DNA from: a virus
Taxonomy: Duplodnaviria; Caudoviricetes
Length of the DNA: 45,300 nucleotides
Virus record (IMG/VR): IMGVR_UViG_3300030207_002883
Span: 1 to 45,300 of that record
Reading direction: 5' to 3' (one strand)
The translations under genes and the position numbers were made by a program. How positions within the stretch are numbered: the stretch's first letter is position 1; each line of letters starts with the position of its first letter. The notes under the pieces are model-generated. The model did not search any database, was not told where the DNA came from, and saw only the letters and a list, made by a program, of their open reading frames with translations. Of this stretch, positions 4,097-39,647 are shown piece by piece.

Positions 4097-5013
4097 TATC
4101 TAGCCTGTATGATTTCGTAATCGATTCCCTTCGTTCGATCCAATCTTTCATACTTGAAAAACAAACGAAGCCATGTAGCACCGATGGGCTTCGGAGGTGC
4201 GCCTCTCTCAACATGCCACCCGCCATGTCCGTCCTTAAACTCTTCTTTGTAAGTAGGAATACAAACATGAGTTTGTACATCATGGTAGGTCATGTTGCGA
4301 CCTAACCTTAATCTTACCAGATCGAGCTTCCATGCTTCGTGGATATGTCCACTGATGACAATATCAGCGTCAGGAAGATAAACTGCTTTACGATTTGTTT
4401 GAATTACACCCTTTGTAACAGGCCCTCCACCTCCGTACCCGTGAGAGTAGTGAAGAGTTAATCCTTTTCCGTAGGAAAGATATTTCTTACCAACAGTATT
4501 TTGTTGTTCTACGGAGAATCGTACAAAGCCACCATATCCTCCGCTATGAATTTTATGCCCAGACCTGTATTTAATCTGTTCTGTCATCCTACCAATTAAA
4601 TCAGTCTCATGCCTTTTTAGGATGTTAGCTTCGTGGTTACCTCTACCAATAACAATGAACTGATCTGCGTATGGCATAAAAAAATCACTCGCAGTATTCA
4701 CCAAAGAGTCTAGGTAGTCTGCACCTTGATGCTCTGGTCTTAGATCATTTTTAGAAGATCGAGGGTCGTACTTGCCCTGCATTGCACAAAAGAAGTCACC
4801 ACAATCAATGATTCCAGCGTTTCTTTTACGAGCTTCTTTTAGATGCTCTATTTGTAAATCCCAGTCAGACTTTGGATTATCCCAATGCCTGTCTGAGGTG
4901 AGTAGAAACCATTGTTCCCAATCTGCTAAATCTCCTTTAGGAGAGCATCTCACCGTGAAGATATTTCTATTTAACTTACTTACTACATAACTAGGCTCAA
5001 ATTTAGTTGCCAC
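4096..5013 (-). CDS. calcineurin-like metallophosphoesterase
   Basis: All five motifs present: SDRH, GDFF, GNHE, SHG, SGHIH; GTG start with GGAG RBS. Confidence 0.9.
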   Translation of the reverse strand: MATKFEPSYVVSKLNRNIFTVRCSPKGDLADWEQWFLLTSDRHWDNPKSDWDLQIEHLKEARKRNAGIIDCGDFFCAMQGKYDPRSSKNDLRPEHQGADYLDSLVNTASDFFMPYADQFIVIGRGNHEANILKRHETDLIGRMTEQIKYRSGHKIHSGGYGGFVRFSVEQQNTVGKKYLSYGKGLTLHYSHGYGGGGPVTKGVIQTNRKAVYLPDADIVISGHIHEAWKLDLVRLRLGRNMTYHDVQTHVCIPTYKEEFKDGHGGWHVERGAPPKPIGATWLRLFFKYERLDRTKGIDYEIIQAR

Positions 5014-5025
5014 TAGAACTCTCCA

Positions 5026-6372
5026 TTAATCAGAAGCTAGGGAATCTGCAATACTTGGTGATGAGTCTGATGGAAGCTGTACGTTCAAACCTTTTCTGAA
5101 AAAGGTCTGGAACACGCCTGCATCATTGTTAGATATTGCAGAAGAATGTGTATCTCTTATCGTAGTCTTTCCTGACCCATCTACTAAGGCAAAGTTAACT
5201 CCACCAAAATATTCAACAGGCCCAAACTGAATATGGTCAATTAAAACTGTCTTCCCAGAAGTCAAACCTCCTGCTAAATCAACTTGTAATTTCATATCAG
5301 TAGGAATTGCAGAAGGCATCGTAATGTAAAAATACTCTACCCCGTATGCGGTCTGAGCAGCGAGTGCAGCAGCATTCATTTCGATCTTCTCAGAAGAGCT
5401 TGCTGTATAACCTGTTCCTGTAAATTTAATAGTTAATGCTCCTGCGGAAATACTGGCTTTGCCTTTAACAAAACAAGCAAGTACATACCTGCGATATCTA
5501 TCTAGACGAGATGTTGTGACTGCTTGCTCTATTCTCCATGTTTTACTACCGTTGCCTACACAAGCCATTGCGTAGTCACCTTTGTAAGCATCTACAGTTC
5601 TGTCTACAGGATCAAAACCTGAAACTTGAGTCCAAGAACCCGGAGTAGTACTATCTGTCCAAGTTTCAAAGTCTCCGTTTCCTAACCCATAATTGCTGGA
5701 TTCAGCATGAAGAGTTGATATTGTTGGGCCTGAATTTGAGCCTGTATCTCCATGGTGGTAGCCTGTAGACCCTTCATCCCCATGAATAATAAAATTCTCT
5801 TTTCCATCTGTAACTCCAGTTTCATCAGAGTCTTCTATGGCAGTTACCCTAAATGTTTCTGATGTTGGCCCTAATTCACTATCTATTCCTGATTGATGTC
5901 GAGTTGCAATCCCACCAGAAATAGGAATGTTATATCCATCTAACTTTTTATCAACTAATAGAATTGAAGAGTTTGCATTAGTAAGAGTGGATGAGACGGA
6001 ACCTACGGTAACAACTGATTGTTTAATGTGTTGCGAGGTATCAGTCATATCTTTAATGATTTCAGGAAGAATACCTTCCCAACCACCAGTAGTGACAAAA
6101 TTGTCTAAGACAAAATCATCGTTCTCCATTAATTGAGAGACTTTACTTACTAATTGATTTATCCAACTAACTACATTAGATTTGTACCCATCAAATATGG
6201 CAGTGTTGTCACCATAGAATCCTATAGGAACTGAGTTGGCTTCAAGCTCAGTTTCTATCTGACTTCTATCTGTTTCTAGATCGCTGATAATTGTTTGGAA
6301 GTCGTTTATTCGTTGAACATATTCTCCAATACATTCAAATAGATTGGTATACTGAGCAGAAGAGAGACCCAT
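5026..6372 (-). CDS. putative virion-associated protein with carbohydrate-binding-like (NGDFE) beta domain
   Basis: 448 aa; helical N-terminus, S/T/G-rich body, GNGDFETW...IDHIQF resembling a CBM-type jelly roll. Confidence 0.55.
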   Translation of the reverse strand: MGLSSAQYTNLFECIGEYVQRINDFQTIISDLETDRSQIETELEANSVPIGFYGDNTAIFDGYKSNVVSWINQLVSKVSQLMENDDFVLDNFVTTGGWEGILPEIIKDMTDTSQHIKQSVVTVGSVSSTLTNANSSILLVDKKLDGYNIPISGGIATRHQSGIDSELGPTSETFRVTAIEDSDETGVTDGKENFIIHGDEGSTGYHHGDTGSNSGPTISTLHAESSNYGLGNGDFETWTDSTTPGSWTQVSGFDPVDRTVDAYKGDYAMACVGNGSKTWRIEQAVTTSRLDRYRRYVLACFVKGKASISAGALTIKFTGTGYTASSSEKIEMNAAALAAQTAYGVEYFYITMPSAIPTDMKLQVDLAGGLTSGKTVLIDHIQFGPVEYFGGVNFALVDGSGKTTIRDTHSSAISNNDAGVFQTFFRKGLNVQLPSDSSPSIADSLASD

Positions 6373-13618: not shown

Positions 13619-13851
13619 TGGCTATTAGAGACTTAGTTGTACCTGCATTCCTGCCTACAAGTACTGTAGAGTTTGTAGTTCTGCGGGGAATGTCTGCTAA
13701 TCCTGATGTTACCGGAACTGGTACAGGGGTTGTAACTTTTGAGAGTGAAAGCATAACTCGCCCAAGAATTAAAACTGAATCATTAACCACTTCTAGTCTG
13801 ATTTCTGAGGGGTTCACAGCTCCTCAGTTTAAGTCTGAGACTCTTAAGTAG
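13618..13851 (+). CDS. hypothetical protein (morphogenesis operon)
   Basis: Start overlaps the previous stop. Confidence 0.65.
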   Translation: MAIRDLVVPAFLPTSTVEFVVLRGMSANPDVTGTGTGVVTFESESITRPRIKTESLTTSSLISEGFTAPQFKSETLK

Positions 13852-13860
13852 AGGAAAACA

Positions 13861-14253
13861 ATGTCTAGATCAACTCTTTCCAAAGAAGACAGACGGGTTG
13901 CTGAAGGCTCTTCTGCTCAATATACAGCTACTTTAACTGATGAGGCTGGGGTTGCTCTGGCTTTATCGTCTCTACATACAATCACATTGACGTTGTATGA
14001 CAAAGAATCCGGTACAATTATTAATAGCAGAAATGACCAAGACGTAAAAAACACCAACAATGTAGCTATAACTTCTGGGGGAGTTCTGACTTGGTCAGTT
14101 CAACCTGCGGATAACCCTATTTCAGGGAGTAACATCAGAGTAGGTGGGCATGAGACTCATGTAGCTCTTTTTGAGTACACATGGGATTCTGGAGCATCTG
14201 CTGGAAAACATGAATTAGAGATAGAAGTTCGTCAACTGGATAAGGTGACTTAA
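13861..14253 (+). CDS. putative virion protein (beta-sandwich-like)
   Basis: 130 aa with GAGGA RBS; beta-rich pattern. Confidence 0.6.
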   Translation: MSRSTLSKEDRRVAEGSSAQYTATLTDEAGVALALSSLHTITLTLYDKESGTIINSRNDQDVKNTNNVAITSGGVLTWSVQPADNPISGSNIRVGGHETHVALFEYTWDSGASAGKHELEIEVRQLDKVT

Positions 14254-14756
14254 TGGCTGTAGAAACACTAGCTTATAGATACACTAGCAGAGCTGAAATG
14301 CAACGAGTGCTTGGTGCGTCTGGTATAGATTTACGTTCAGATGATTTAGGTGGTTCTGAAGACAGCACTATGATCGATGAGGTCACAGGCGAAGCTACAG
14401 AAATGATTAACTTTTACGCAGGTCTAAATTACGACGAAAAGGATTTAGAAACCTCTTTCATTGTAAGACGTTGGGCTACATGGATCGCATGTTATCTCCT
14501 CTCCCAGAGAAGGGGTAATCCCTCTTTGTTCTCTGACAAGTACGAAGAGACTATTGCTCTTCTGGAAGAGGTGTACAAGTTTAACAGGATTATTCCTCGA
14601 CTTCCGACGAGAGAAGACCTTACTCCTGCAATGTCTAATGTACATATCGATGATCGTTTCCGAACTCACAAGATTCGAGTTCATCCTACGATCTCTACTG
14701 GTGGTACATACGGTAAACAAGACCTCAGTCCAAGATTTCCATTTGAGTGGCTATGA
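14253..14756 (+). CDS. head-tail adaptor, Mu gp36 (DUF1320)-like
   Basis: YTSRAEM...EATEMINFY...IACYLLSQRR...YEETIALLEEV pattern. Confidence 0.75.
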   Translation: MAVETLAYRYTSRAEMQRVLGASGIDLRSDDLGGSEDSTMIDEVTGEATEMINFYAGLNYDEKDLETSFIVRRWATWIACYLLSQRRGNPSLFSDKYEETIALLEEVYKFNRIIPRLPTREDLTPAMSNVHIDDRFRTHKIRVHPTISTGGTYGKQDLSPRFPFEWL

Positions 14757-15394
14757 AAATTAAAGGTGCTACACTTAGAGGCTTAGTAAAAGATTTACCT
14801 AAGTCACTAGGCCTTAAAAAGAAAACTCCTCAAACTGAAAAGCTGAGAGATGCTTTTTGGGGTCACTTTGCACATGCTTTTTATGAAGAAGCTCACAAAG
14901 CATTCATAACAAAGTCTAAAGGTGGTACTGATGAAAGTGGAATGAAATGGAAACCTTTATCTGAAAAGACAAAACGCAACCGTCTTTCTCAGACAAAAGG
15001 AGGTTTAGGGAAGTTACTTTCTAAACGTAATAGGAAAACCAATCCTGAACGTAAAGGAAAAAAGTATAAGACTAGTGCTTTTGCTCGTCTTGCTGCTGTA
15101 ATGGGAGAAAAAGACGCAAAGAAGATGGTTAGCAGCGGAAACGTCCCTATTTTAATTCGTTCTGGGAGGCTAGTAGAAAGTATTAAACCTGCAAAAATGT
15201 CAGGAAATAGGTACTATAAGAAGAAAGATCAAATATATGAACTGGGGGACGGAAGAGTAAAATTAGGTTCTGAAGTTCCTTATGCAGACAGACAAAATAT
15301 AGATCGTCCTTTGTTTGGTAATGAAGCAGTATTTATTGAAAGGGCTATGGAAAAAGCTACCCAAGCATTGTCCAAACAACTTGGACAACTATAG
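14753..15394 (+). CDS. virion morphogenesis/neck protein, Mu gpG-like
   Basis: G.KWKPLSEKT...ILIRSGRLVESI...LGSEVPYA...RPLFG; ATG 14753 preferred over GTG 14747. Confidence 0.8.
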   Translation: MKIKGATLRGLVKDLPKSLGLKKKTPQTEKLRDAFWGHFAHAFYEEAHKAFITKSKGGTDESGMKWKPLSEKTKRNRLSQTKGGLGKLLSKRNRKTNPERKGKKYKTSAFARLAAVMGEKDAKKMVSSGNVPILIRSGRLVESIKPAKMSGNRYYKKKDQIYELGDGRVKLGSEVPYADRQNIDRPLFGNEAVFIERAMEKATQALSKQLGQL

Positions 15395-23143: not shown

Positions 23144-25894
23144 ATGACTTATGCAGGCGCTAGAAACACAAGAATGGAACTTGTGGCTTACGGTGGTTCC
23201 ATTACGTTATATAACCCTTCTGATTTAATTTTGTCACACAAACAAAATAATAGAAGTGTAGAGACGTTAATAAATAAAGCTAATGAAGTACATTACACTT
23301 GTCGTGGAAGAACTGAATTAGAGGGTTGGTTTTTAGTAAAAGCAAATGACGTAAGAAACTACTTACCTAAGATATGGGAAGGTACTGGTTTTGACGAGTG
23401 TTCTATAAAGCTAACAGATGAAGCAGGAGTTTTACAAGCAGGGTACGACCCTGCGTTTGGTGGAGCAACTACAGGTAATCACAAGGTTACCGAAATAAAA
23501 AAGTTGTACGCTGTAGAATCTTATGCTGTTTCTGGTGTAGTTCGAGCAGATATTACAGAACATGATGCAGAGTATTCTAGACCTTCTTATCTACAAGCAG
23601 GCAATGACTTTGGTAGAAATGTTCTAACTGATACTTACGAAAATCAATTTTACCTAGTTAAGGTTGTTGATTATAGATACTGGCACAAACTATCACGTTA
23701 TCTAGGATCGTTTAACATAAAGACTCGGTTGTGGGAGGATGACTCGCATAACGTAAGATACCAAAAGAATAGTGGATACTCATGGCAAACTATGTTAGAC
23801 GAGCTATGGGGCAGTGGTGGAGTCTCTGCTTTAGATCATTCATCTGCTAACTATAGCCTTGAAGGCCCAATAAACTATTACTTTTGGGGAGTAAATAGTT
23901 TAGATGCATTCCATAAGGTACTTAACGATTTAGACCACACTATAGTAAGAAATCTCGATGGTACTACTACTGTTTGGGACATGGGAACAGACCCCCCATC
24001 TATCTCAGACCAAGAAAGAGAACTTTATAAAACTGAGCTAGTAGAGGTCAGCAATGACAGCAACGGGCTAATTCTCCCAGAAAAGATATGGGTACTCTTT
24101 CCTAAACTAGATTATCAATGGCAGACATCTTCTGACACAGAGGAAGTGACTGCCAATGATTACTGGCATAACAGACCTGTTTGGGGAATACAAAAAGATA
24201 CTGCTACTTTGTTGGCTGGAATGTCAGGTGCGCCTAGTGACCCCACTCTTCAAAGTGGAACCAATCAAATTTTGCATGACACTCTTCCTGCTCAGTTTGC
24301 AGCTAGATTACATGGGGCAGGTGAGCCTAATGAAGACCCAGCTGGTACAGGCTCAATTCTTCCTATCAATGATACAGAGATTCAAAACCAAGCTACACAA
24401 AGAGCTACTCGTTGGATTAAAGCTAGGCTGAATGGCGACAAGAAGATAGTAAGAGAAGTTTATAGAGGTTATATCCCTTTTACCCCTGCTCACGATATCT
24501 CTAAGATAATCTGGAAGAACAAAGGGCTAGGGGCTGTAACTATCATTGAAAGCTGTTCTATAGCCTCTGAAGAGGATTTCCTGCCCTCTGAAGGATATGG
24601 TGGCAAAGGTTCTGGAGGTGAATACAGTAATGCCTACGACTATCACGAAGCTCTTAGCAGACGGGTAGTAAACGAAAACCCAAGTCCTCCTGACCATGCT
24701 CGTTGGATGGAGCCTGCTTTCCGTTGGGCAATGATAGAACCTGATGCTGATATTCTTCCTGATAATGGGTCGAGTCCTCATGGTATCGGAACTTGTTCAG
24801 TTAAGTATGGAATCTCTTCTGGAGGGGATGCTGATCTTACGTTTTACACTTCGACAAAAAACATTGAAGTTAAAAACATTGATACAACAGCTAAACTAGA
24901 ACAGGGCAAGTACTACTTTGCTTGGTGGAACGAGCAGATGAGATTCTGGTTAGCTGTTCCCAGAAGTGCTTACAATCTTAGAGGCGGGGAGATATGTTCT
25001 ACAGTTAGCAGAGGTAGTAACTTAAGTCAGACTTCCGGTAAAAACACAGCTACTTTAGCGGACTATGGTCATGACGACTGTATAGAGACTGTAAAGTTCT
25101 TACGAGTAAACAAGCAGACTATGCTTAGAAGCTATGTAAGAACTGCTGATTACGTTGGAGGGGATACTTGTGGGTATGCATATGCTGACGCAGGGGGACT
25201 TAAAGAAGAAGAGATGTTAATCTCTTTCAACCCTTCTCGAAAAATTGGAGGGGCTGTTTTATGGTCAGATGGAGATGTTATACGTTGGAGTCGCGCACCT
25301 AAGTTAGCTTCTTATTTAACAATAGGTGATAGGTTTACCTATGAACCTCCACGCATTGAGTTTTTAGTAGGAGCAGGTAGGGCAGGAAGTAATGGGTTTA
25401 CTCTTAGTTGCCAGATGCCTGAAGCTGCTGAAGGTACAGGTACGCCTACTGGAGGAAACACTTCAAACCACTGCCCTGCGGGAACTACAGGTACTAGTGC
25501 AGGTAAACTTATATTTCCAGACGATAGTGCAACTCTAAATCAAGTTGTTTCAAGTTACGGTAATGGTTCATTAGCGGGACAGCATTTAACTGTTAAAGGT
25601 TACAATACTGGTGCTGTTAAACTGAAATGGACACTTCCCGGTCTAAGTGGGTCAGTAGGCGTTTTGCATCCAAATGGTAGTGACACAATTACTTTTAATT
25701 ATGAAGATGGAATACTTGTTGGAGCAACGAAATCTGGTAACGATCCTGTTCTTTCTGGTTTAGAAGCAAGATGGAATCCTAATATTGATACCTATGTTAG
25801 TTTTGTTGAAACTTTGCAAGACCCCTGTGCAGATGCTTACGCAGGTAATGCAAGCAATGGTTCTAATAGAGATGCCAATGGTGACCCGTCATAA
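23144..25894 (+). CDS. large tail tip/host-interaction protein (putative)
   Basis: 916 aa, last gene of the late operon, G/S/T-rich beta-like C-terminus. Confidence 0.6.
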   Translation: MTYAGARNTRMELVAYGGSITLYNPSDLILSHKQNNRSVETLINKANEVHYTCRGRTELEGWFLVKANDVRNYLPKIWEGTGFDECSIKLTDEAGVLQAGYDPAFGGATTGNHKVTEIKKLYAVESYAVSGVVRADITEHDAEYSRPSYLQAGNDFGRNVLTDTYENQFYLVKVVDYRYWHKLSRYLGSFNIKTRLWEDDSHNVRYQKNSGYSWQTMLDELWGSGGVSALDHSSANYSLEGPINYYFWGVNSLDAFHKVLNDLDHTIVRNLDGTTTVWDMGTDPPSISDQERELYKTELVEVSNDSNGLILPEKIWVLFPKLDYQWQTSSDTEEVTANDYWHNRPVWGIQKDTATLLAGMSGAPSDPTLQSGTNQILHDTLPAQFAARLHGAGEPNEDPAGTGSILPINDTEIQNQATQRATRWIKARLNGDKKIVREVYRGYIPFTPAHDISKIIWKNKGLGAVTIIESCSIASEEDFLPSEGYGGKGSGGEYSNAYDYHEALSRRVVNENPSPPDHARWMEPAFRWAMIEPDADILPDNGSSPHGIGTCSVKYGISSGGDADLTFYTSTKNIEVKNIDTTAKLEQGKYYFAWWNEQMRFWLAVPRSAYNLRGGEICSTVSRGSNLSQTSGKNTATLADYGHDDCIETVKFLRVNKQTMLRSYVRTADYVGGDTCGYAYADAGGLKEEEMLISFNPSRKIGGAVLWSDGDVIRWSRAPKLASYLTIGDRFTYEPPRIEFLVGAGRAGSNGFTLSCQMPEAAEGTGTPTGGNTSNHCPAGTTGTSAGKLIFPDDSATLNQVVSSYGNGSLAGQHLTVKGYNTGAVKLKWTLPGLSGSVGVLHPNGSDTITFNYEDGILVGATKSGNDPVLSGLEARWNPNIDTYVSFVETLQDPCADAYAGNASNGSNRDANGDPS

Positions 25895-25897
25895 GGT

Positions 25898-25910
25898 ATG
25901 CTTGAGCGAA
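25898..25910 (+). repeat. ATGCTTGAGCGAA motif, copy 2 of 5
   Basis: Exact 13-mer just after the stop of 23144..25894. Confidence 0.85.
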
Positions 25911-25953
25911 TAAAAAAGCCCCCTTGGGAGGAGCCTAACAAACCCAAGGAGGC
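25911..25953 (-). terminator. intrinsic terminator (minus strand)
   Basis: GCCTCCTTGGG-14 nt loop-CCCAAGGGGGC-TTTTTT; one G-U pair forms only on the minus strand. Confidence 0.8.
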
Positions 25954-25973
25954 ATGAACCGAACCGTTTCAAT
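25911..25973 (-). ncRNA. candidate ~60-nt small regulatory RNA
   Basis: Bracketed by a TTGACA-17-CAGAAT promoter and an intrinsic terminator; no ORF; complementary to the polA leader and to RBSs. Confidence 0.5.
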
Positions 25974-25977
25974 AACA

Positions 25978-26006
25978 ATTCTGATTTATAGACTGTGTTC
26001 TGTCAA
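25978..26006 (-). promoter_or_regulatory. candidate sigma70-type promoter (leftward)
   Basis: Minus strand TTGACA(26006-26001)-17 nt-CAGAAT(25983-25978). Confidence 0.55.
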
Positions 26007-26030
26007 CAGCTCCATACAGTCTTATTTATT

Positions 26031-26101
26031 AAAAAGCTGACAGGGCGTGACTACACCCCATATGTAGCCTAGCCCCGAGAGTTTAGCTAGACCCTGTCAG
26101 C
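26031..26101 (-). terminator. three-way-junction RNA structure with U tract, ending the leftward operon
   Basis: 10-bp outer stem GCTGACAGGG/CCCTGTCAGC, two inner hairpins and T5 on the minus strand. Confidence 0.6.
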
Positions 26102-26111
26102 CTATCCCAGT

Positions 26112-26528
26112 TTAGTTTACAGAAACGTCTACCCAACCTTCACAATTCTCTTGAATTGCCATGCCATAGGCACGTTTGATATGGTCGACTCTTTCTATCT
26201 CTTTACTCGGACAATCAACCCACACTTCATCACCTATATCTCCAACTAAGAAAACATTTCCGTGAATACCTGTTGGGGTAATTGAACCAAGGTGATGAAG
26301 TACCGTTCCATGTAAGTAGCTGGTTGCTACTTTGTTTATTGGGTCACCATCCATAATGCCATTGTCATTAACAATCATAGTAACTCCATCTAAAAACACA
26401 GGCTGACCAACATCATACCCTGCAATAGCTTTCATCTCTTCCAGAGCTGTATTTTGCTTTACAGTAGTCTGTATTGTTTCTCCAGACCACTGAATGCCTA
26501 GAACCTTAATCATCTTATCACTACTCAT
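26112..26528 (-). CDS. DUF3846-like protein
   Basis: LEEMKAIAGY...MIVNDNG...PINKVAT...IHGNVFLVG; start at ATG 26528 after AGGAG. Confidence 0.7.
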   Translation of the reverse strand: MSSDKMIKVLGIQWSGETIQTTVKQNTALEEMKAIAGYDVGQPVFLDGVTMIVNDNGIMDGDPINKVATSYLHGTVLHHLGSITPTGIHGNVFLVGDIGDEVWVDCPSKEIERVDHIKRAYGMAIQENCEGWVDVSVN

Positions 26529-29249: not shown

Positions 29250-29344
29250 TTTCTATCGTCATTTAATTTTTATTGCAATACCAGTAGTACTGTTTTTTGT
29301 CATATTTTTTTGCTGTTGACAACTCAGGGCTATGTTCTTAGGCT
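29250..29344. promoter_or_regulatory. divergent promoter region
   Basis: Leftward TTGCAA-17-TAGAAA (29278-29250) and rightward TTGACA(29316)-17-TAGGCT(29339) in the AT-rich gap between divergent operons. Confidence 0.55.
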
Positions 29345-29626: not shown

Positions 29627-30112
29627 ATGCCCTCTTTAAGCAAAGAAAAAGCCCGTCAAAAATCTCTCTCCCAGAGGAAGGCTGATAAAGTTGATCCTTC
29701 CAATCTGGAGAAGATTCTTGATATCCAAAAGACTGAAGACCCTCCTCGAAAAGCATGGCATAGAACCCATGGAAAGAAGACAGGTTTGGGGATTATGGCT
29801 TTCTGGAAAACATTGTTTGAAGGTAATGAGATTTTACCTAAGTCCAAAAAGATGACGAATGCAGAAATTGAAAGACAAGTTCGTTTAGAGTTTCCTCACG
29901 AAAAAACACTTCTGGAGAATCTGGACACCGGTCGTCAATCTGTAAATTACTATCGTCATCTATACAACAAAGGACGTATGACCAAGGGTGATACGCCTGA
30001 ATATATTTCCTTTCGCTATGATGGTGATGGCAAAGTTGTTAACACCAGAACAGGCAACCGTCTGTTAAGCGAAGAGGAGATAGATGCCTACATCGAAAAA
30101 TATCAAGGATGA
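29627..30112 (+). CDS. hypothetical protein, possibly DNA-binding
   Basis: 161 aa, basic; MTNAEI...VNYYRHLYNKG helix pattern. Confidence 0.7.
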   Translation: MPSLSKEKARQKSLSQRKADKVDPSNLEKILDIQKTEDPPRKAWHRTHGKKTGLGIMAFWKTLFEGNEILPKSKKMTNAEIERQVRLEFPHEKTLLENLDTGRQSVNYYRHLYNKGRMTKGDTPEYISFRYDGDGKVVNTRTGNRLLSEEEIDAYIEKYQG

Positions 30113-33220: not shown

Positions 33221-33928
33221 ATGCCACGAACTAAACAATCCCAAGGATTCGCATCAGCGATGAAGAAAGCAGGAGATGCGTGGGAAACATCCCGAGAAGT
33301 TAAAGACACAGGAAATAGTTATGAGCAGCAACCAATCGACGATGGGACTTATGTTGCAGGTCTTACATCAGCTCGCACAGGGGTCGACAAAAACGGGAAC
33401 GGGTACGCCTCGTTCAACTTCAAGGTCTTACGGGGAGAATTTGAGGGCGTTAGCGTCTCAGTCTTCCACTCCATGGCAGAGACCGAATGGCGATCCATCG
33501 AGCAATCACTTAAGTCACTCTTCGTGGATTTACAGAGGCTATCTGGAGAAGATGACTTCTCAGAAATAGAGCCTGAAGACATTGAAGAGATGGTTACTGA
33601 ATTGAATGAGGAATGTCCTACTATTCAAATTGGTATCAAAAACTGGAAGTCAGATAAGTCTTCTGGTATTAACGTATACATCAACAAGCGACTTGATGAT
33701 GTAGCAACCACCACTGAAGAGACTATTCCCGAGGAAGGTGATGTGTTCCTCTGGAAGTCTCCCAAGTCAAAAACACAATCGCAATACGCTGTCCGTGGAG
33801 TAGACGAGGAAGAAGAGACTGTGACTCTTGTCCGTCTTAAGGATGCGAAAGCCTTTGAAGATGTGCCTTGGGAAGCTCTTGGTGAGCTGGTAGATGACGC
33901 AGATGTTGAGGACGATATTCCGTTCTAG
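33221..33928 (+). CDS. single-stranded DNA-binding protein (DUF669-like)
   Basis: PIDDGTY...FKVLRGEFEG pattern and acidic DDIPF C-terminal tail; start at ATG 33221 after AGGAG. Confidence 0.8.
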   Translation: MPRTKQSQGFASAMKKAGDAWETSREVKDTGNSYEQQPIDDGTYVAGLTSARTGVDKNGNGYASFNFKVLRGEFEGVSVSVFHSMAETEWRSIEQSLKSLFVDLQRLSGEDDFSEIEPEDIEEMVTELNEECPTIQIGIKNWKSDKSSGINVYINKRLDDVATTTEETIPEEGDVFLWKSPKSKTQSQYAVRGVDEEEETVTLVRLKDAKAFEDVPWEALGELVDDADVEDDIPF

Positions 33929-33951
33929 AACCGAACCGCTGTGTCAGTTGG

Positions 33952-33989
33952 GGGTGGAGAGTAACCTTGAATGCTCTCCACCCTTTTTT
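33952..33989 (+). terminator. intrinsic terminator between the SSB and polymerase genes
   Basis: GGGTGGAGAG/CTCTCCACCC stem followed by T6. Confidence 0.8.
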
Positions 33990-34007
33990 ATGAATAAGGA
34001 GCCAAAC

Positions 34008-35933
34008 ATGTTAATTGCAGTCGATACAGAAACAACAGGACTTGATCTATTTGGGGGTGATTGCCCCTTCGCAATTTCTACTTGCGATGAAACCGGAGCC
34101 ACTAGATTCTGGGAGTGGGACGTTGATCCAAAAACTAGACAGGTGATGCCCCCTTCAGAAGAGATAGCAGAATTTACTGACTACATTGATGGAAACACTC
34201 TAGTTTTCCACAACATAAAATTTGACCTGAGGGCTTTAAGTAACCTTGGAATAAGAATTCACTTTAAGCAGGTTGATCCTATACGAGAGCAGGAGTGGAA
34301 GACACTACCTTACTGTGACCACAAATACGAAGCAGTTTGTGAAACCTTCGAGGATACACTGTTAGCAGCCCATGTCTGTGACAGCGTCGAGAGCCACGGT
34401 CTAAAGCCCCTCTCAGAGAAGTACTTAGATATTCTAGTTGATGACGAAGAAGAGCTTCTGGAGGCTGTGAGAGCGTCTAGGAGGGCAGCGAAGAGTAAAA
34501 AGAACTGGAACCTAGCCCCAAATGTGAAAGGGGACTACTGGCTCCCTAAAGCCATTGATAGTTCTTCTACTGTTCTTAAAAAGTATGCAGTGCAAGATGC
34601 AGTCAGAACTATGTTGTTATGGCACATGTACTCTGGGGTAATGGAGCGTGAAAAGTTTACGCCCCAGTACAGAACCCGTAAGGCTTTAACTCCAATTACC
34701 TACCGGATGGAGACTACCGGAGTTACCGTTAAAAAGGTTTTACTGGGAAGAGAAATAAAACGGTATGAGGATGCAGCATTAGTTGAAGAGGCTAAGTGTA
34801 TCCAGCTTGTTGAATCCAGAGACTACTTGGATGAAGAATTTAACATTCGTTCTGGGAAGCAGATACAGAAGGTACTGTATGGCGATCCTGAAGGAGCCTC
34901 TTCCCTCAGAAAGAGAGGATTAAATTGTCCTATCATTCAGTTCACAGAGTCGGGTCAACTGAGTACATCAGCAGATGTTCTTCTAGAGTTGTATGAAGGT
35001 CATGTACGACCTAGATCAAAAGCCAAAGAGTTTGTAGCAAACATACTCAGGTATCGAAAGAATAAAACCTGCGCTCAATACTTAGAGAGTTACAAGCAGG
35101 GGTTACAAAGGGAAGGGAAGAGAACCTTACTGCACCCTTCGTTTAACCAAACTGGAACTAGAACAACACGATGGTCATCTAGTAATCCTAACGGACAGAA
35201 TATTGGGTCTGGAGGCAAGGATGCGTTTGGAAATGAAGTGGACGATTTTTGTCTTCGTGATGTGTTTGGCCCTTCCGCTGGACGGGTATGGTTATCCATT
35301 GATTATTCTCAGCTGGAGCTGCGGATACTTAGTGTGCTTGCGCAAGAGCATAAACTTCTCGAAGCCTTTGAAGGAGACGGAGACATCCACACCCTTACTG
35401 CTGACCTCTGTGGAATCTCTCGTAAAGCAGCTAAGGGCGTTAATTATGGAATCATATATGGGGCAGGACAAGAAAAACTAGAGGCCATGACGGGTCTAGA
35501 AAACTTCAATGAAGTATTTAGTAAAGCCTACCCCAGAGTTAGTGAGTTTATGAATGAAACCACTCGTAAGGTGAAGAAGGATGGGTATGTAAAAACCATT
35601 GGAGGGTATCGCCTCACTGTCCCCAGAGACAAACCTTACATCGGAACTAACTATATCATTCAGGGGTCTGCGGGTGACATTCTAAATCGAGCAATGATTC
35701 AGGTAGACAACTATCTTAAGTTTAACGATGACTTTCCTGATAACAATGATGGCTACCTGATCATGTGTATTCATGACGAATTAGTTTTTGATTTTGATAG
35801 GAAGTCATTGGGAGATGCTCCCCAAAAGATTAAAAAACTCATGGAAGAGGCAGGAATTGACCTTGGAGTTAAGACTCCCGTTGATGTTGAACGTATCGAT
35901 CAGAAATGGTCAAAGGGAAAGGTCTTAAAGTGA
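34008..35933 (+). CDS. polA: family A DNA polymerase with 3'-5' exonuclease
   Basis: Exo DTETTG, HNIKFD, YAVQD; motif A DYSQLELR, motif B RKAAKGVNYGIIYG, motif C IHDEL; start at ATG 34008. Confidence 0.95.
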   Translation: MLIAVDTETTGLDLFGGDCPFAISTCDETGATRFWEWDVDPKTRQVMPPSEEIAEFTDYIDGNTLVFHNIKFDLRALSNLGIRIHFKQVDPIREQEWKTLPYCDHKYEAVCETFEDTLLAAHVCDSVESHGLKPLSEKYLDILVDDEEELLEAVRASRRAAKSKKNWNLAPNVKGDYWLPKAIDSSSTVLKKYAVQDAVRTMLLWHMYSGVMEREKFTPQYRTRKALTPITYRMETTGVTVKKVLLGREIKRYEDAALVEEAKCIQLVESRDYLDEEFNIRSGKQIQKVLYGDPEGASSLRKRGLNCPIIQFTESGQLSTSADVLLELYEGHVRPRSKAKEFVANILRYRKNKTCAQYLESYKQGLQREGKRTLLHPSFNQTGTRTTRWSSSNPNGQNIGSGGKDAFGNEVDDFCLRDVFGPSAGRVWLSIDYSQLELRILSVLAQEHKLLEAFEGDGDIHTLTADLCGISRKAAKGVNYGIIYGAGQEKLEAMTGLENFNEVFSKAYPRVSEFMNETTRKVKKDGYVKTIGGYRLTVPRDKPYIGTNYIIQGSAGDILNRAMIQVDNYLKFNDDFPDNNDGYLIMCIHDELVFDFDRKSLGDAPQKIKKLMEEAGIDLGVKTPVDVERIDQKWSKGKVLK

Positions 35934-36287: not shown

Positions 36288-36343
36288 ATTCAGGATTTTG
36301 TAAGGAATACCGTTTGACATACCGATATGGGTTATAGTAAGAT
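36282..36343. promoter_or_regulatory. partial 28-bp motif (minus strand, 36282-36309) adjacent to a rightward promoter candidate
   Basis: Reverse complement TATTCCTTACAAAATCCTGAATTTAATT; TTGACA(36314)-18 nt-TAAGAT(36338). Confidence 0.5.
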
Positions 36344-36548: not shown

Positions 36549-36568
36549 GAATGACAGGAGCCTAAGTC

Positions 36569-37210
36569 ATGAATTTCTCAGCACTACTAGAACAGAAAAT
36601 CGAAGAACACAAAGCACAGCGAAAAGAGCTGGAACTACAGCATGATCGTCGTATAGTAACCCAGACGAACAATCTGAATGCACTTCTGGATGAGATCAAA
36701 GCACCTCTCGAATCGCTTGGTTACTACGTTAATGTTCACTCTGGAAGTATGAACTACTCTCGAATGTGGAAGAATCCTAGTGACGAGCTGGAAGCTAATC
36801 AGCAGCGTTATCAAGACCATCCACATCTGCACGGAGCGTGGATTGATATCCACATTGGTCGTGACAAGTTGCGACCAGAAGACCGTAGAGTTCGACCTTG
36901 GGGTCGCCACGGTCATGCTCAGTCTTGGAGTCGTAAAACGGGTAAACCTGCTGGTGGTAAGCATGATGCTTTTATCAAGATTGCTTGGTTTCAGGATGAA
37001 ACTGGTGGGTGCGAGCATCGATGGGTTATCTCACCCAATGTTTGTTATAAGGACAACGAGCGTGTCTCAAGTGACCTCGTGAACCACCAAGTGGTTTACC
37101 GAGAAACTCGTCATGATTGCAAAGCGACCGTACTGCGATTCCTTAGTGACATTATTGCAGAAGTAGTTAATTACGAATCACATTTGAAAAACGAATTAGG
37201 AGTCAAATAA
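36569..37210 (+). CDS. hypothetical protein
   Basis: 213 aa with AGGAG RBS. Confidence 0.75.
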   Translation: MNFSALLEQKIEEHKAQRKELELQHDRRIVTQTNNLNALLDEIKAPLESLGYYVNVHSGSMNYSRMWKNPSDELEANQQRYQDHPHLHGAWIDIHIGRDKLRPEDRRVRPWGRHGHAQSWSRKTGKPAGGKHDAFIKIAWFQDETGGCEHRWVISPNVCYKDNERVSSDLVNHQVVYRETRHDCKATVLRFLSDIIAEVVNYESHLKNELGVK

Positions 37211-37578: not shown

Positions 37579-37604
37579 TCGAATCAGCCATAAGGAGCTA
37601 AACA

Positions 37605-39647
37605 ATGGCAACTAAAGTAAAAAGCAAGAATGGTGACAACAAGGTAGCAATGTTTACCTGTCACGGAATTGAACTCCAAGACAAAGGTGGAACTCAAGTC
37701 ATTGGTGACTGCCCCTTCTGTGACAAGGAGGGTAAGTTCTACGTTTCTAAAGCCAGAGGTCAGTACCACTGTAAGACCTGTGGGGAGAAAGGTAATGGTT
37801 ACAATTTCCTGACTAAAATAGCTGAACAGTGTCGTGAAGATACGACTGAGAAGCAGTACAAGGAATTTGGCAAAGAACGGGGAATCTCTCAGTACGTTTT
37901 GAAACGTGAGAAGATAGCCTACGACAAGTTCACTGATCGTTGGTTGATTCCCATCTGGACTCCCACTTCAGAGAATGTGGTTAACCTGATGACCTACGAC
38001 AAATCCCTTACCAAGGGGAAGACTCGTAGTACCACAGGTTGCGCTCGACATCTCTACAGAGCTAACAAGATTGGTGACACTGGCCCTATATACGTCTGTG
38101 AGGGCGAATGGGACACTCTAGCCCTCCTGAGCCTAATGGATAAGGCAGGGATTACAACTGCGTCTGTAGTGGGCGTAGGAGGTGCTGAGACGTTTAAGAA
38201 AGACTGGGTTCAGTACTTTAAGGATCGTCATGTAATACTTCTGTACGATAACGATGCTTCTGGTCAGGACGGTAAGATTAAAGTGATTGATACCCTCCGT
38301 GACACTGCGAAGACTTTACAGTCTATCCATTGGCCTGTAAACACTCCTGACAAGTATGATGTCCGTGATCTGATCAATGAGTATGGAACATCTAAGAAGA
38401 CTTGGAAGAGGCTTCAGGAGATGATTCTGGACGATGCTGGTAAGTCCTCTAAGCCCAAGGTAAAGAGAACCAGCTTCAATTCATTACTGAAGGACTTCAA
38501 GTCCAAGCTACACTTCAACAAGGACATGGAAGAAGCCTTGTTAATGACCATCTCAACTGTTGCCAGCAACATGATTATTGGCGATCCGTTGTGGATATAT
38601 CTGGTTGGCCCCCCCGGTTGTGGAAAATCCATGATCCTTCAATCCTTCCAGAATGCTGAAGCCTGTATCTTCAGGTCTAAGCTAACAGCTACTGCTTTCG
38701 TTTCAGGGATGAAACAAGAAGATGGCTCTGACCCATCCCTCCTGTCTCAGCTAGATGGTAACACTCTACTGATTAAAGACTTTACTGCCATCAAGAGTAT
38801 GCCTATTGTTGTTCAGGAGAATTTGTATGGAATCCTTCGTGATGCCTATGATGGTTCGGTTCTTGTTGAGTATGGGAATGGGGTTAAGCGTAATTACCCC
38901 AAGGTTCACTTTTCTATCGTCGCTGGGATTACTGATGTTGTTCACGGGGATAATAGGGCTGCTCTTGGAGAACGATTCTTAAAGGTGGAGATGATCCCCT
39001 CTGACAAAGAATACAATCAGGATGCGCAGATCAGGGCTTCCTTAAAGAACTTGGTAGCAAACGTAAAAGCAGAGCATGGTCTTAAAGATTGTGTGGAAGC
39101 ATTTATCTATCACCTGACTGAGAAATACAATGAAGATAACCTTCCAGATGTTCCAGATTGGGTCATCGACAGGGTGGTATCTCTATGCCAGATCGTAGGT
39201 AAACTACGCTCCAGCGTTCTCAGAGAGCGTAATGAAGACGTATCTTATCGTCCTAGACCTGAGATTGGTACTCGACTAGCTAACCAGTTAGTGAAGTTGG
39301 GGCGATCCTGTGCTTACGTTAAAGGCAAAGATGCTATCGACGAAGAGATTTATAAACTGATGGAGAAGGTAGCATTCTCGACTGCTCATGGGTGGCACAG
39401 TGAAATCTATCGTGAGATGATTCACAACCCTTATGGCATAACCGTAGAGAAACTTGCAGAAGCCCTTCAGATATCAATCTCTTCTGTTCAGCGACGACTA
39501 GTAGACCTTCAGGAGCTGAAGATTGTAGTCAGCGAGAAGATTAAGAAAGGTAAGGCAGGTCGTCCTACTAATCTGTGGAAAGTTACCGACGATATGAGAC
39601 AGCACTGGGAGAATGCCAGTGTGAGTTTGAAAAGGATTAAACGATGA
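37605..39647 (+). CDS. primase-helicase (Zn finger + TOPRIM + AAA+/MCM-like ATPase + C-terminal HTH)
   Basis: CPFC..CKTC; CEGEWD, YDND, DVRD; GPPGCGKS, LLIKDF, GERFL; EKLAEALQISISSVQRRL. Confidence 0.85.
   Translation: MATKVKSKNGDNKVAMFTCHGIELQDKGGTQVIGDCPFCDKEGKFYVSKARGQYHCKTCGEKGNGYNFLTKIAEQCREDTTEKQYKEFGKERGISQYVLKREKIAYDKFTDRWLIPIWTPTSENVVNLMTYDKSLTKGKTRSTTGCARHLYRANKIGDTGPIYVCEGEWDTLALLSLMDKAGITTASVVGVGGAETFKKDWVQYFKDRHVILLYDNDASGQDGKIKVIDTLRDTAKTLQSIHWPVNTPDKYDVRDLINEYGTSKKTWKRLQEMILDDAGKSSKPKVKRTSFNSLLKDFKSKLHFNKDMEEALLMTISTVASNMIIGDPLWIYLVGPPGCGKSMILQSFQNAEACIFRSKLTATAFVSGMKQEDGSDPSLLSQLDGNTLLIKDFTAIKSMPIVVQENLYGILRDAYDGSVLVEYGNGVKRNYPKVHFSIVAGITDVVHGDNRAALGERFLKVEMIPSDKEYNQDAQIRASLKNLVANVKAEHGLKDCVEAFIYHLTEKYNEDNLPDVPDWVIDRVVSLCQIVGKLRSSVLRERNEDVSYRPRPEIGTRLANQLVKLGRSCAYVKGKDAIDEEIYKLMEKVAFSTAHGWHSEIYREMIHNPYGITVEKLAEALQISISSVQRRLVDLQELKIVVSEKIKKGKAGRPTNLWKVTDDMRQHWENASVSLKRIKR

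Follow-up and report, generated by a model that had tools for sequence, protein, structure and literature searches.

In the literature examined, control of phage genes by phage RNAs falls mostly to cis-antisense RNAs with a single target gene and to C4-like immunity RNAs, and the trans-acting RNAs studied best have host genes as targets. Sar of P22 and OOP of lambda, both cis-antisense RNAs, repress the translation of genes of the element that encodes them, and plasmid copy-number antisense RNAs give dosage feedback on replication. C4 RNA of P1 and P7 is described as occluding a ribosome binding site (RBS) with one loop, while a second element binds upstream and provides specificity (PMC5320573). 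Phage trans-acting small RNAs (sRNAs) are reviewed as short, with imperfect pairing near the RBS of several mRNAs, and one of them, VpdS of VP882, is reported to affect host and phage mRNAs via Hfq (PMC12197685); PreS of lambda is reported to act on the host genes dnaN, which it activates, and alaS (10.1101/2024.10.31.621285). SviR of the PLE satellite is described with a conserved promoter, two seed regions and a terminator, and blocks an RBS (10.1101/2022.04.08.487710). Among bacterial RNAs, LhrC of Listeria carries redundant motifs that pair with Shine-Dalgarno (SD) sequences, one of them in the terminator loop, as shown by compensatory mutation (PMC4132741), terminator loops that act on fepA in E. 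coli probably form no pairs (PMC11979758), and the toxic small RNA family (RF02278) consists of terminator-ended RNAs of 57–92 nt (PMC4603805). Our literature search, with subscription papers and supplements mostly outside its range, returned no description of the sRNA family reported here or of a phage sRNA directed at the phage's own replication genes, and a term search of the available text of the 2025 phage-sRNA review (PMC12197685) found neither "polymerase" nor "primase".

The locus considered here lies in a complete 45.3-kb virus record of a tailed phage (IMGVR_UViG_3300030207_002883; all 45,300 nt were analysed and are referred to as the window), in which terminase, capsid and portal genes were recognised by PHROGs and Pfam matches. 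Its rightward module encodes a resolvase, a UDG-like protein, an exonuclease, Sak4, Ssb, a family A polymerase (polA, whose product matches Pfam DNA_pol_A) and a primase (PHROGs, Pfam), and a leftward early operon terminates at 26112. The candidate sRNA unit sits at the convergent junction between this operon and a 916-codon late gene that ends at 25894. No cultured relative was found (the closest polymerase showed 27% identity), and two queries against 185,579 species genomes yielded two weak matches only, with neither a prophage relative nor a host. Several relatives bear TARA contig names, which suggests marine waters. A contig in run X1 (contigs of unstated kind) spans 25817–26249, with 2 of its 26 differences inside 25911–26006, and is uninformative on transcription. 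Near the start of the rightward early operon, a clade-marker gene (29627–30112, plus strand) encodes a highly conserved, mostly helical protein of 161 aa (model pLDDT 89), which was examined as a possible repressor and showed no Pfam or PHROGs match and no PDB fold match at E <= 0.001; it could be a regulator. TTGACA promoter-like sites were observed upstream of this operon (29316–29344, plus strand) and of gene 36569 (36314–36343, plus strand).

The first-pass annotation of the window had proposed a self-contained minus-strand unit of about 60 nt without an ORF, transcribed from TTGACA-17-CAGAAT, whose 5' arm is the exact 11-nt complement of a site between ssb and polA. Each of these elements was recovered (Table 1): the two hexamers are present exactly, the hairpin is followed by a U6 tract, the sole minus-strand ORF in the unit has 6 codons and no SD, and the seed match lengthens from 9 to 11 nt in the window by reaching 25966 (25966–25956). 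The predicted RNA has a mostly open 5' arm and a single hairpin with an 11-bp stem, in which 25953–25943 pairs with 25928–25918, and its fold energy was -23.4 kcal/mol (z -2.66; equalled by 4 of 200 shuffles). Read on the plus strand, the hairpin folded poorly (z -1.09) and lacked a U-tract. Taken alone, the promoter match is no more than chance, with 23 promoter-like sites in 19 kb vs 35.4 in shuffles, the unit's promoter being one of five that score 10/12. For an 11-mer from anywhere in the 17-nt arm, 0.11 matches are expected per genome, and for the specific 11-mer 1.2e-5 in an 80-nt leader. The unit stands above chance because it is conserved in relatives. A cis-antisense RNA or type I antitoxin was considered and rejected, as the plus-strand gene before the unit ends at 25894, outside it, and a 28-codon plus-strand ORF at the unit, with an SD-like run 1 nt from its start, has this start codon absent or shifted in L109, L113 and L133.

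Table 1. Predicted features of the sRNA unit and of its candidate target sites in the window, with analogous units in distant phages
Feature	Position	Strand	Evidence or remark
Predicted sigma70-type -35 hexamer TTGACA	26001..26006	-	TTGAC(A/T) at like distance in 17/17 synteny-defined relative loci
Predicted -10 hexamer CAGAAT	25978..25983	-	17-nt spacer from -35; each of the 11 distinct units agrees with the consensus at 4–5/6 positions (best of three spacings)
Predicted small RNA of ~59 nt	25912..25970	-	5' end inferred, unmapped
Invariant 9-nt 5' seed GUUCGGUUC	25956..25964	-	Invariant columns in alignment A2; target enrichment
Terminator stem, 5' arm	25943..25953	-	99/99 pairs kept in 9 distinct units
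Terminator loop, 14 nt, extended anti-SD	25929..25942	-	Anti-SD loop in 8/11 distinct units
Stem 3' arm (25928–25918) and U6 tract (25917–25912), predicted intrinsic terminator	25912..25928	-	
Branched terminator-like element of leftward operon	26031..26102	-	Upstream of the unit, insulates it here, separate from it
Perfect 11-nt seed site at ssb stop, 80 nt before polA	33928..33938	+	Lineage-specific
Predicted intrinsic terminator between ssb and polA	33950..33990	+	Hairpin and U-tract after ssb in the relatives displayed
polA RBS and start (34008)	33997..34010	+	Loop match 11/12 (33997–34008)
Gene 36569 (function unassigned) RBS and start	36556..36571	+	Loop match 10/10 (36556–36565); 8/299 shuffles as good
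Primase(-helicase) RBS and start	37593..37607	+	Loop match 11/13 (37593–37605), one difference G-U; 13/299 shuffles as good
Analogous units in distant phages	L203 9800–9885 (= L216 7468); L220 7003	-	Different seeds

An Rfam search of the window gave nothing at threshold, and the three hits at E <= 10 (PyrR, mir-9418 and toxic sRNA) were far below cut-off. The branched element upstream of the unit, which follows a DUF3846 gene, has no Rfam match either; its AAACUC(U)CG loop is conserved in the window and in G001, G002 and G003, and G002 and G003 carry a second hairpin with a similar loop; in L002 the structures lie at about 4270–4345 and 4180–4230 (minus strand). This structure is possibly a second structured RNA.

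Relatives were gathered by protein similarity and not by the RNA. Among the 40 loci examined (L106–L145), 17 span the late genes and the conserved gene at 29627, and all 17, plus an eighteenth locus, carry the unit; in each of the 17, the minus strand shows TTGAC, GTTCGGTTC (9 nt) and a U-tract preceded by a GC-rich hairpin. Several of these loci represent the same phage, one being identical to the window, so that 11 distinct unit sequences remain. Their promoter spacers average only 32% identity. The stem sequence varies with pairing retained (99 of 99 pairs in nine distinct units, with more than one pair type at 10 of the 11 positions), vs 6.2 of 11 pairs on average when arms were mixed between phages; the arms were registered automatically from the U-tract with the best-pairing 11-mer as 5' arm, which favours pairing, and these same arms served for the mixed-arm control. 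U-tract registration was preferred to RNAalifold on a MAFFT alignment, which placed the stem in the wrong register (9 pairs, of which 4 had a compensatory change). The -10 hexamer lies 7–8 nt before the seed in 8 of the 11 units, which would place the seed at the very 5' end of the RNA. Pattern scans of viral contigs returned 20 and 41 stretches, respectively, and the second found terminator folds of <= -21 kcal/mol in clade members only; stretches in L164/L169 and L199/L201 (-18 and -19 kcal/mol) were set aside because clade genes were absent and no gene start carried a seed site.

Gene content around the unit differed among relatives. The large helicase gene of the leftward operon is missing from G003 (L003), which still has the sRNA unit. 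Small leftward ORFs run into the sRNA promoter in L002 (3990–4170, minus strand) and L006 (about 5250–5330, minus strand), with no separate terminator evident, and in these two the leftward operon may share the terminator of the sRNA.

Complements of the seed were sought at gene starts in 21 contigs and loci, hand-grouped into 10 lineages and counted as one unit per lineage and gene family. Automatic gene starts were left uncorrected, and some polymerase starts were miscalled, which counts against the seed-site test. Full seed pairing (at most two G-U pairs) within the last 15 nt before the start was found in 15 of 150 early units vs none of 178 late units (Fisher p 5e-6; p-values are optimistic because lineages were assigned by hand and units share ancestry). 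These 15 units represent 13 gene families, including polA, primase, ssb, exonuclease and sak4, and the complement lies between the SD and the start codon. Of the perfect seed sites outside the sRNA, 6 of 10 end 0–3 nt before a start codon, vs 24 of 381 for 139 composition-matched motifs, and the true seed ranked first of 140, first of 1,260 permutations and first of 16,384 9-mers, the last set comprising every 9-mer in which the two bases overlapping the SD are retained. Every start-region site has sense orientation, and the seed is antisense to it. Perfect sites precede polA in L003, L129, L133 and L135, primase in L120 and L122, the exonuclease gene in L137 and, in L002, a small gene inserted after the ssb terminator; wobble variants precede ssb, sak4, resolvase and leftward genes.

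The signal was unevenly distributed, with full-pairing counts by lineage of 0/23, 2/27, 1/13, 2/22, 0/5, 3/18, 3/16, 4/10, 0/10 and 0/6. The four lineages without a fully paired start are that of the window (0/23 early families) and three sparsely covered ones (0/5, 0/10 and 0/6), and the polymerase starts of L002, L006, L122 and L207 show no good seed match. A second, weaker class of sites was found at -90 to -15 (9 of 150 early vs 3 of 177 late units), and none of 60 control seeds reached nine. Substitutions that keep pairing through G-U (23 of 34) were non-discriminating, because seven of the nine seed positions tolerate a transition. The claim of the first-pass annotation of a trans-acting sRNA on the replication module is supported by the relatives (early-only sites, covarying stem, 17/17 loci) with a change of emphasis, as the conserved module is the 9-nt seed facing the SD-to-start spacer and not the site upstream of the ssb terminator.

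That upstream site is specific to the window's lineage. GAACCGAACCG occurs in the genome only at 25956 and 33928, and the latter is the best arm site outside the unit's own locus (-20.9 kcal/mol). The ssb stop codon ends on the first G of this site, which lies 12 nt before the ssb terminator stem; because a strong hairpin and U-tract part ssb from the next gene, polA would need read-through or an unseen promoter. The site was present only in the window and its roughly 92–95%-identical relative, and none was found after the ssb stop in L109, L110, L113, L119, L121, L129 and L207. The polA start codon is most likely at 34008, and the window's polA RBS pairs with eight of the nine seed bases (one A-C mismatch, one G-U) in the register of the relatives' perfect sites; the primase RBS shows the family register with an A-C mismatch to the seed. 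Opening the polA RBS or the 33928 site would cost about 2 kcal/mol each, and in the predicted polA leader fold the terminator hairpin stays intact and the 33928 site pairs only outside it. In a test of -45..+3 against each phage's own leaders, the window was the weakest of six genomes (80 of 1,000 shuffles). By these predictions, the window is an atypical member of the sRNA family. Both matches behind the control originally proposed at two sites in the polA leader are present, and the 33928 site is not kept in other lineages; a two-site model may hold for the window's lineage. The ssb-polA interval also holds additional genes in some relatives: L139 has a TET-associated glycosyltransferase gene (PF20691) inserted there (13818–15086), and L107 and L122 have a gene of the same family at this position, which suggests DNA base modification.

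The terminator loop was examined as a second pairing module. It ranks gene 36569, polA and primase first to third among 58 start regions, and its matches to these three RBSs (Table 1) agree with those originally reported. When everything but the SD part was shuffled, 9 of 299 loops did as well on polA and primase together in the window, so that the true loop is only modestly better than such shuffles; in addition, the loop is short, unrelated and without an anti-SD in three of the 11 units (L133, L135 and L138). Against primase, 23, 17 and 20 of 300 shuffles were as good as the loops of three relatives, in which polA gave no signal, and no start region of polA or primase pairs in full with a 9-mer from the loop of its own lineage. 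Lineages L002 and L006 are set apart by two changes, in loop and primase RBS, that compensate each other, and in a cross-table a phage's own loop was not always the best partner. The anti-SD loop is probably, at about an even chance, an accessory, lineage-specific module.

Thirty distant loci (L209–L238) were scanned for units composed of a promoter, a short RNA and a terminator. Leftward units just upstream of the 29627 homologue were found in two distinct phages only, L216/L217 (the phage of L203) and L220, both without homologues of the leftward operon. The two RNAs lack the family seed. The L216 RNA matched its own sak4, polA and primase leaders over 9, 10 and 10 nt (0 of 1,000 shuffles as good) and the L220 RNA over 7, 9 and 7 nt (2 of 1,000), respectively, the three genes having been chosen after inspection of L216 and L220; matches to the leaders of the other five genomes were only 3–7 nt. 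On a simpler 8-nt count L220 failed (55 of 150 shuffles as good), the energy shuffle was weak for L203 (40 of 500), and two seed-family RNAs matched the L220 primase leader at 9–10 nt. The apparent seed swap in distant phages is supportive, not conclusive. Other units of this kind were observed in L213 (11721, plus strand), just before polA in sense orientation, and in L224 (14868, minus strand), just before primase in antisense orientation. In L203, copies of the motif CCCACGTT (1700, 4928 and 16360) lie immediately before the RBSs of three genes, one of them primase; the L203 locus showed no small RNA matching this motif.

The comparison of relatives shows, at the level of sequence, a conserved unit with a covarying stem and an invariant seed, whose SD-to-start complements are confined to early genes. 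The unit appears to represent a real and apparently undescribed phage sRNA family, and the comparative evidence that it targets the phage's own replication module is unusually strong. We consider it likely that this sRNA acts in trans by pairing at the translation starts of early and replication genes carried by the phage itself, whose translation it represses. The host sigma70 polymerase would transcribe the predicted RNA from early in infection, its invariant 5' seed would pair with early-gene start regions in the cell, with the anti-SD terminator loop adding pairing in some lineages, and pairing would block 30S loading, because the site is inside the ribosome footprint, and so lower the translation of replication genes. 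A host-type promoter and a terminator-protected RNA would lead to accumulation with time and gene dosage, so that the RNA could build up with genome copying and, towards the late phase, hold back polymerase, primase, ssb and recombination proteins; this purpose of a delayed, gene-dosage-linked brake is the weakest part of the model. In the window lineage, the polA and primase RBSs have drifted one mismatch from the seed and are likely covered by the loop. The seed would find its anchor on the other side of the ssb terminator hairpin, 80 nt upstream of polA, in a two-point grip like that of a' and b' in P1 C4. Late transcription continuing beyond 25894 would give RNA antisense to the sRNA, and such RNA could, speculatively, neutralise the sRNA. 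A more tentative, wider proposal is a self-directed sRNA regulon in a group of uncultured tailed phages, in which the seed of one RNA of ~60 nt would co-evolve with the RBSs of polymerase, primase, ssb and recombination genes and distant phages would form seed-specificity groups, giving RNA-only control of copy number and superinfection for phage DNA replication.

The main rival concerns purpose. With the same RNA and the same pairing, the role could be immunity or persistence, with replication genes silenced in a carrier or pseudolysogenic state or in a relative that superinfects, much as C4 RNA acts for lysogeny and immunity in P1 and P7 (PMC5320573). The host-type promoter would fire without phage proteins, the seed is invariant in the clade, so that the RNA of one member would pair with the polA or primase of another over 8–11 nt, and distant phages have other specificities, like immunity groups. 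We nevertheless regard this role as rather unlikely, since no integrase or recognisable repressor was found among 55 proteins compared with PHROGs and 21 compared with Pfam, the species-genome queries returned no prophage relative, and the conserved 29627 protein lacks a fold match at E <= 0.001.

It is improbable that the main targets are instead host mRNAs or host translation, with the RNA acting as an anti-SD decoy in the manner of a toxic sRNA and the phage matches being secondary. The loop, being an anti-SD sequence, would be able to bind a wide range of RBSs, host genes are the targets of known phage trans-sRNAs such as PreS (10.1101/2024.10.31.621285), and there is a very weak Rfam match to the betaproteobacterial toxic sRNA (12.9 bits vs a cut-off of 50). 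Host targeting, however, leaves unexplained why early genes have seed complements at their starts while late genes have none, and why swapped seeds track the phage's own leaders; moreover, three units have no anti-SD loop. Host mRNAs may be targeted in addition to those of the phage.

Still less probable is that GAACCGAAC is a protein-binding motif, either a DNA operator or an RNA site, next to a hairpin that is merely the terminator of a convergent junction. As a short direct repeat just downstream of the promoter, the motif lies where operators often sit, and the small ORF entering the promoter in L002 and L006 means that the hairpin may end the leftward operon there. The window, however, has a separate upstream terminator, the plus-strand reading of the hairpin is a poor fold, and L203/L216 and L220 carry the unit with different matching sequences and without that operon. 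The sites are also fixed relative to the start codon, in sense orientation in the targets and antisense in the unit. A LexA-type direct-repeat operator was considered and dropped, as its spacing and placement differ. Least probable of all is activation, for example by read-through of the ssb terminator or opening of the polA leader: the window's best site does lie just before the terminator stem, and PreS activates dnaN by exposing its RBS (10.1101/2024.10.31.621285), but relatives have their sites in the SD-to-start spacer, where a paired RNA would obstruct the ribosome and repression is far more likely, and in the window the polA RBS and the 33928 site are already cheap to open and the leader fold spares the terminator hairpin.

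If repression of the phage's own replication genes is correct, these phages would time or dose their DNA replication by RNA, through a multi-gene regulon, instead of by a protein repressor. With the seed, the register of the targets and naturally occurring seed swaps in hand, reporter testing is possible without the host. The analysis also offers a discovery route in uncultured phages, with a search first for motifs over-represented in the SD-to-start spacer of early genes and then for their complement in a short promoter-terminator unit.

Compared with described systems, the unit may resemble C4 RNA (RF01695), in the window's polA leader, as a phage RNA that would act on a phage mRNA at two points. 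C4-style recognition fits the window's polA leader, and upstream sites are found in both early and late units at the frequencies given above, with that at 33928 not conserved. Unlike C4, which is an RNase P product with three stem-loops and a' and b' loops and is directed at immunity and antirepressor functions, the unit is a predicted primary transcript with its own promoter, terminator and a single hairpin, and its predicted targets are many replication genes 1–12 kb away; RF01695 was not matched in the window, nor among the hits at E <= 10. It shares with Sar, OOP and plasmid antisense RNAs the predicted repression of the element's own genes; those RNAs overlap a single target with long perfect complementarity, whereas the unit overlaps none of its predicted targets. 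RF02278 is similar in size and terminator end, and its consensus opens with a CU-rich anti-SD-like run, but it is chromosomal, its score is below the cut-off and its seed shows no similarity. LhrC, which is chromosomal, multicopy and stress-induced and has a different motif, is a precedent only for the terminator-loop module. By description, SviR is alike in its conserved promoter, two seed regions, terminator and (here predicted) RBS block, but it is about 210 nt long, satellite-encoded and phage-induced, and represses a late gene of the helper phage. The features of the trans-acting class are present in sequence, namely an own promoter and intrinsic terminator without a conserved ORF (17/17 loci) and a short conserved seed complementary to several distant mRNA starts. 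The unit is like PreS and VpdS in being a short RNA with a 5' seed and predicted imperfect pairing near the RBS of several mRNAs, and it differs from them in its indicated targets, which are the polymerase, primase and neighbouring genes of the phage itself.
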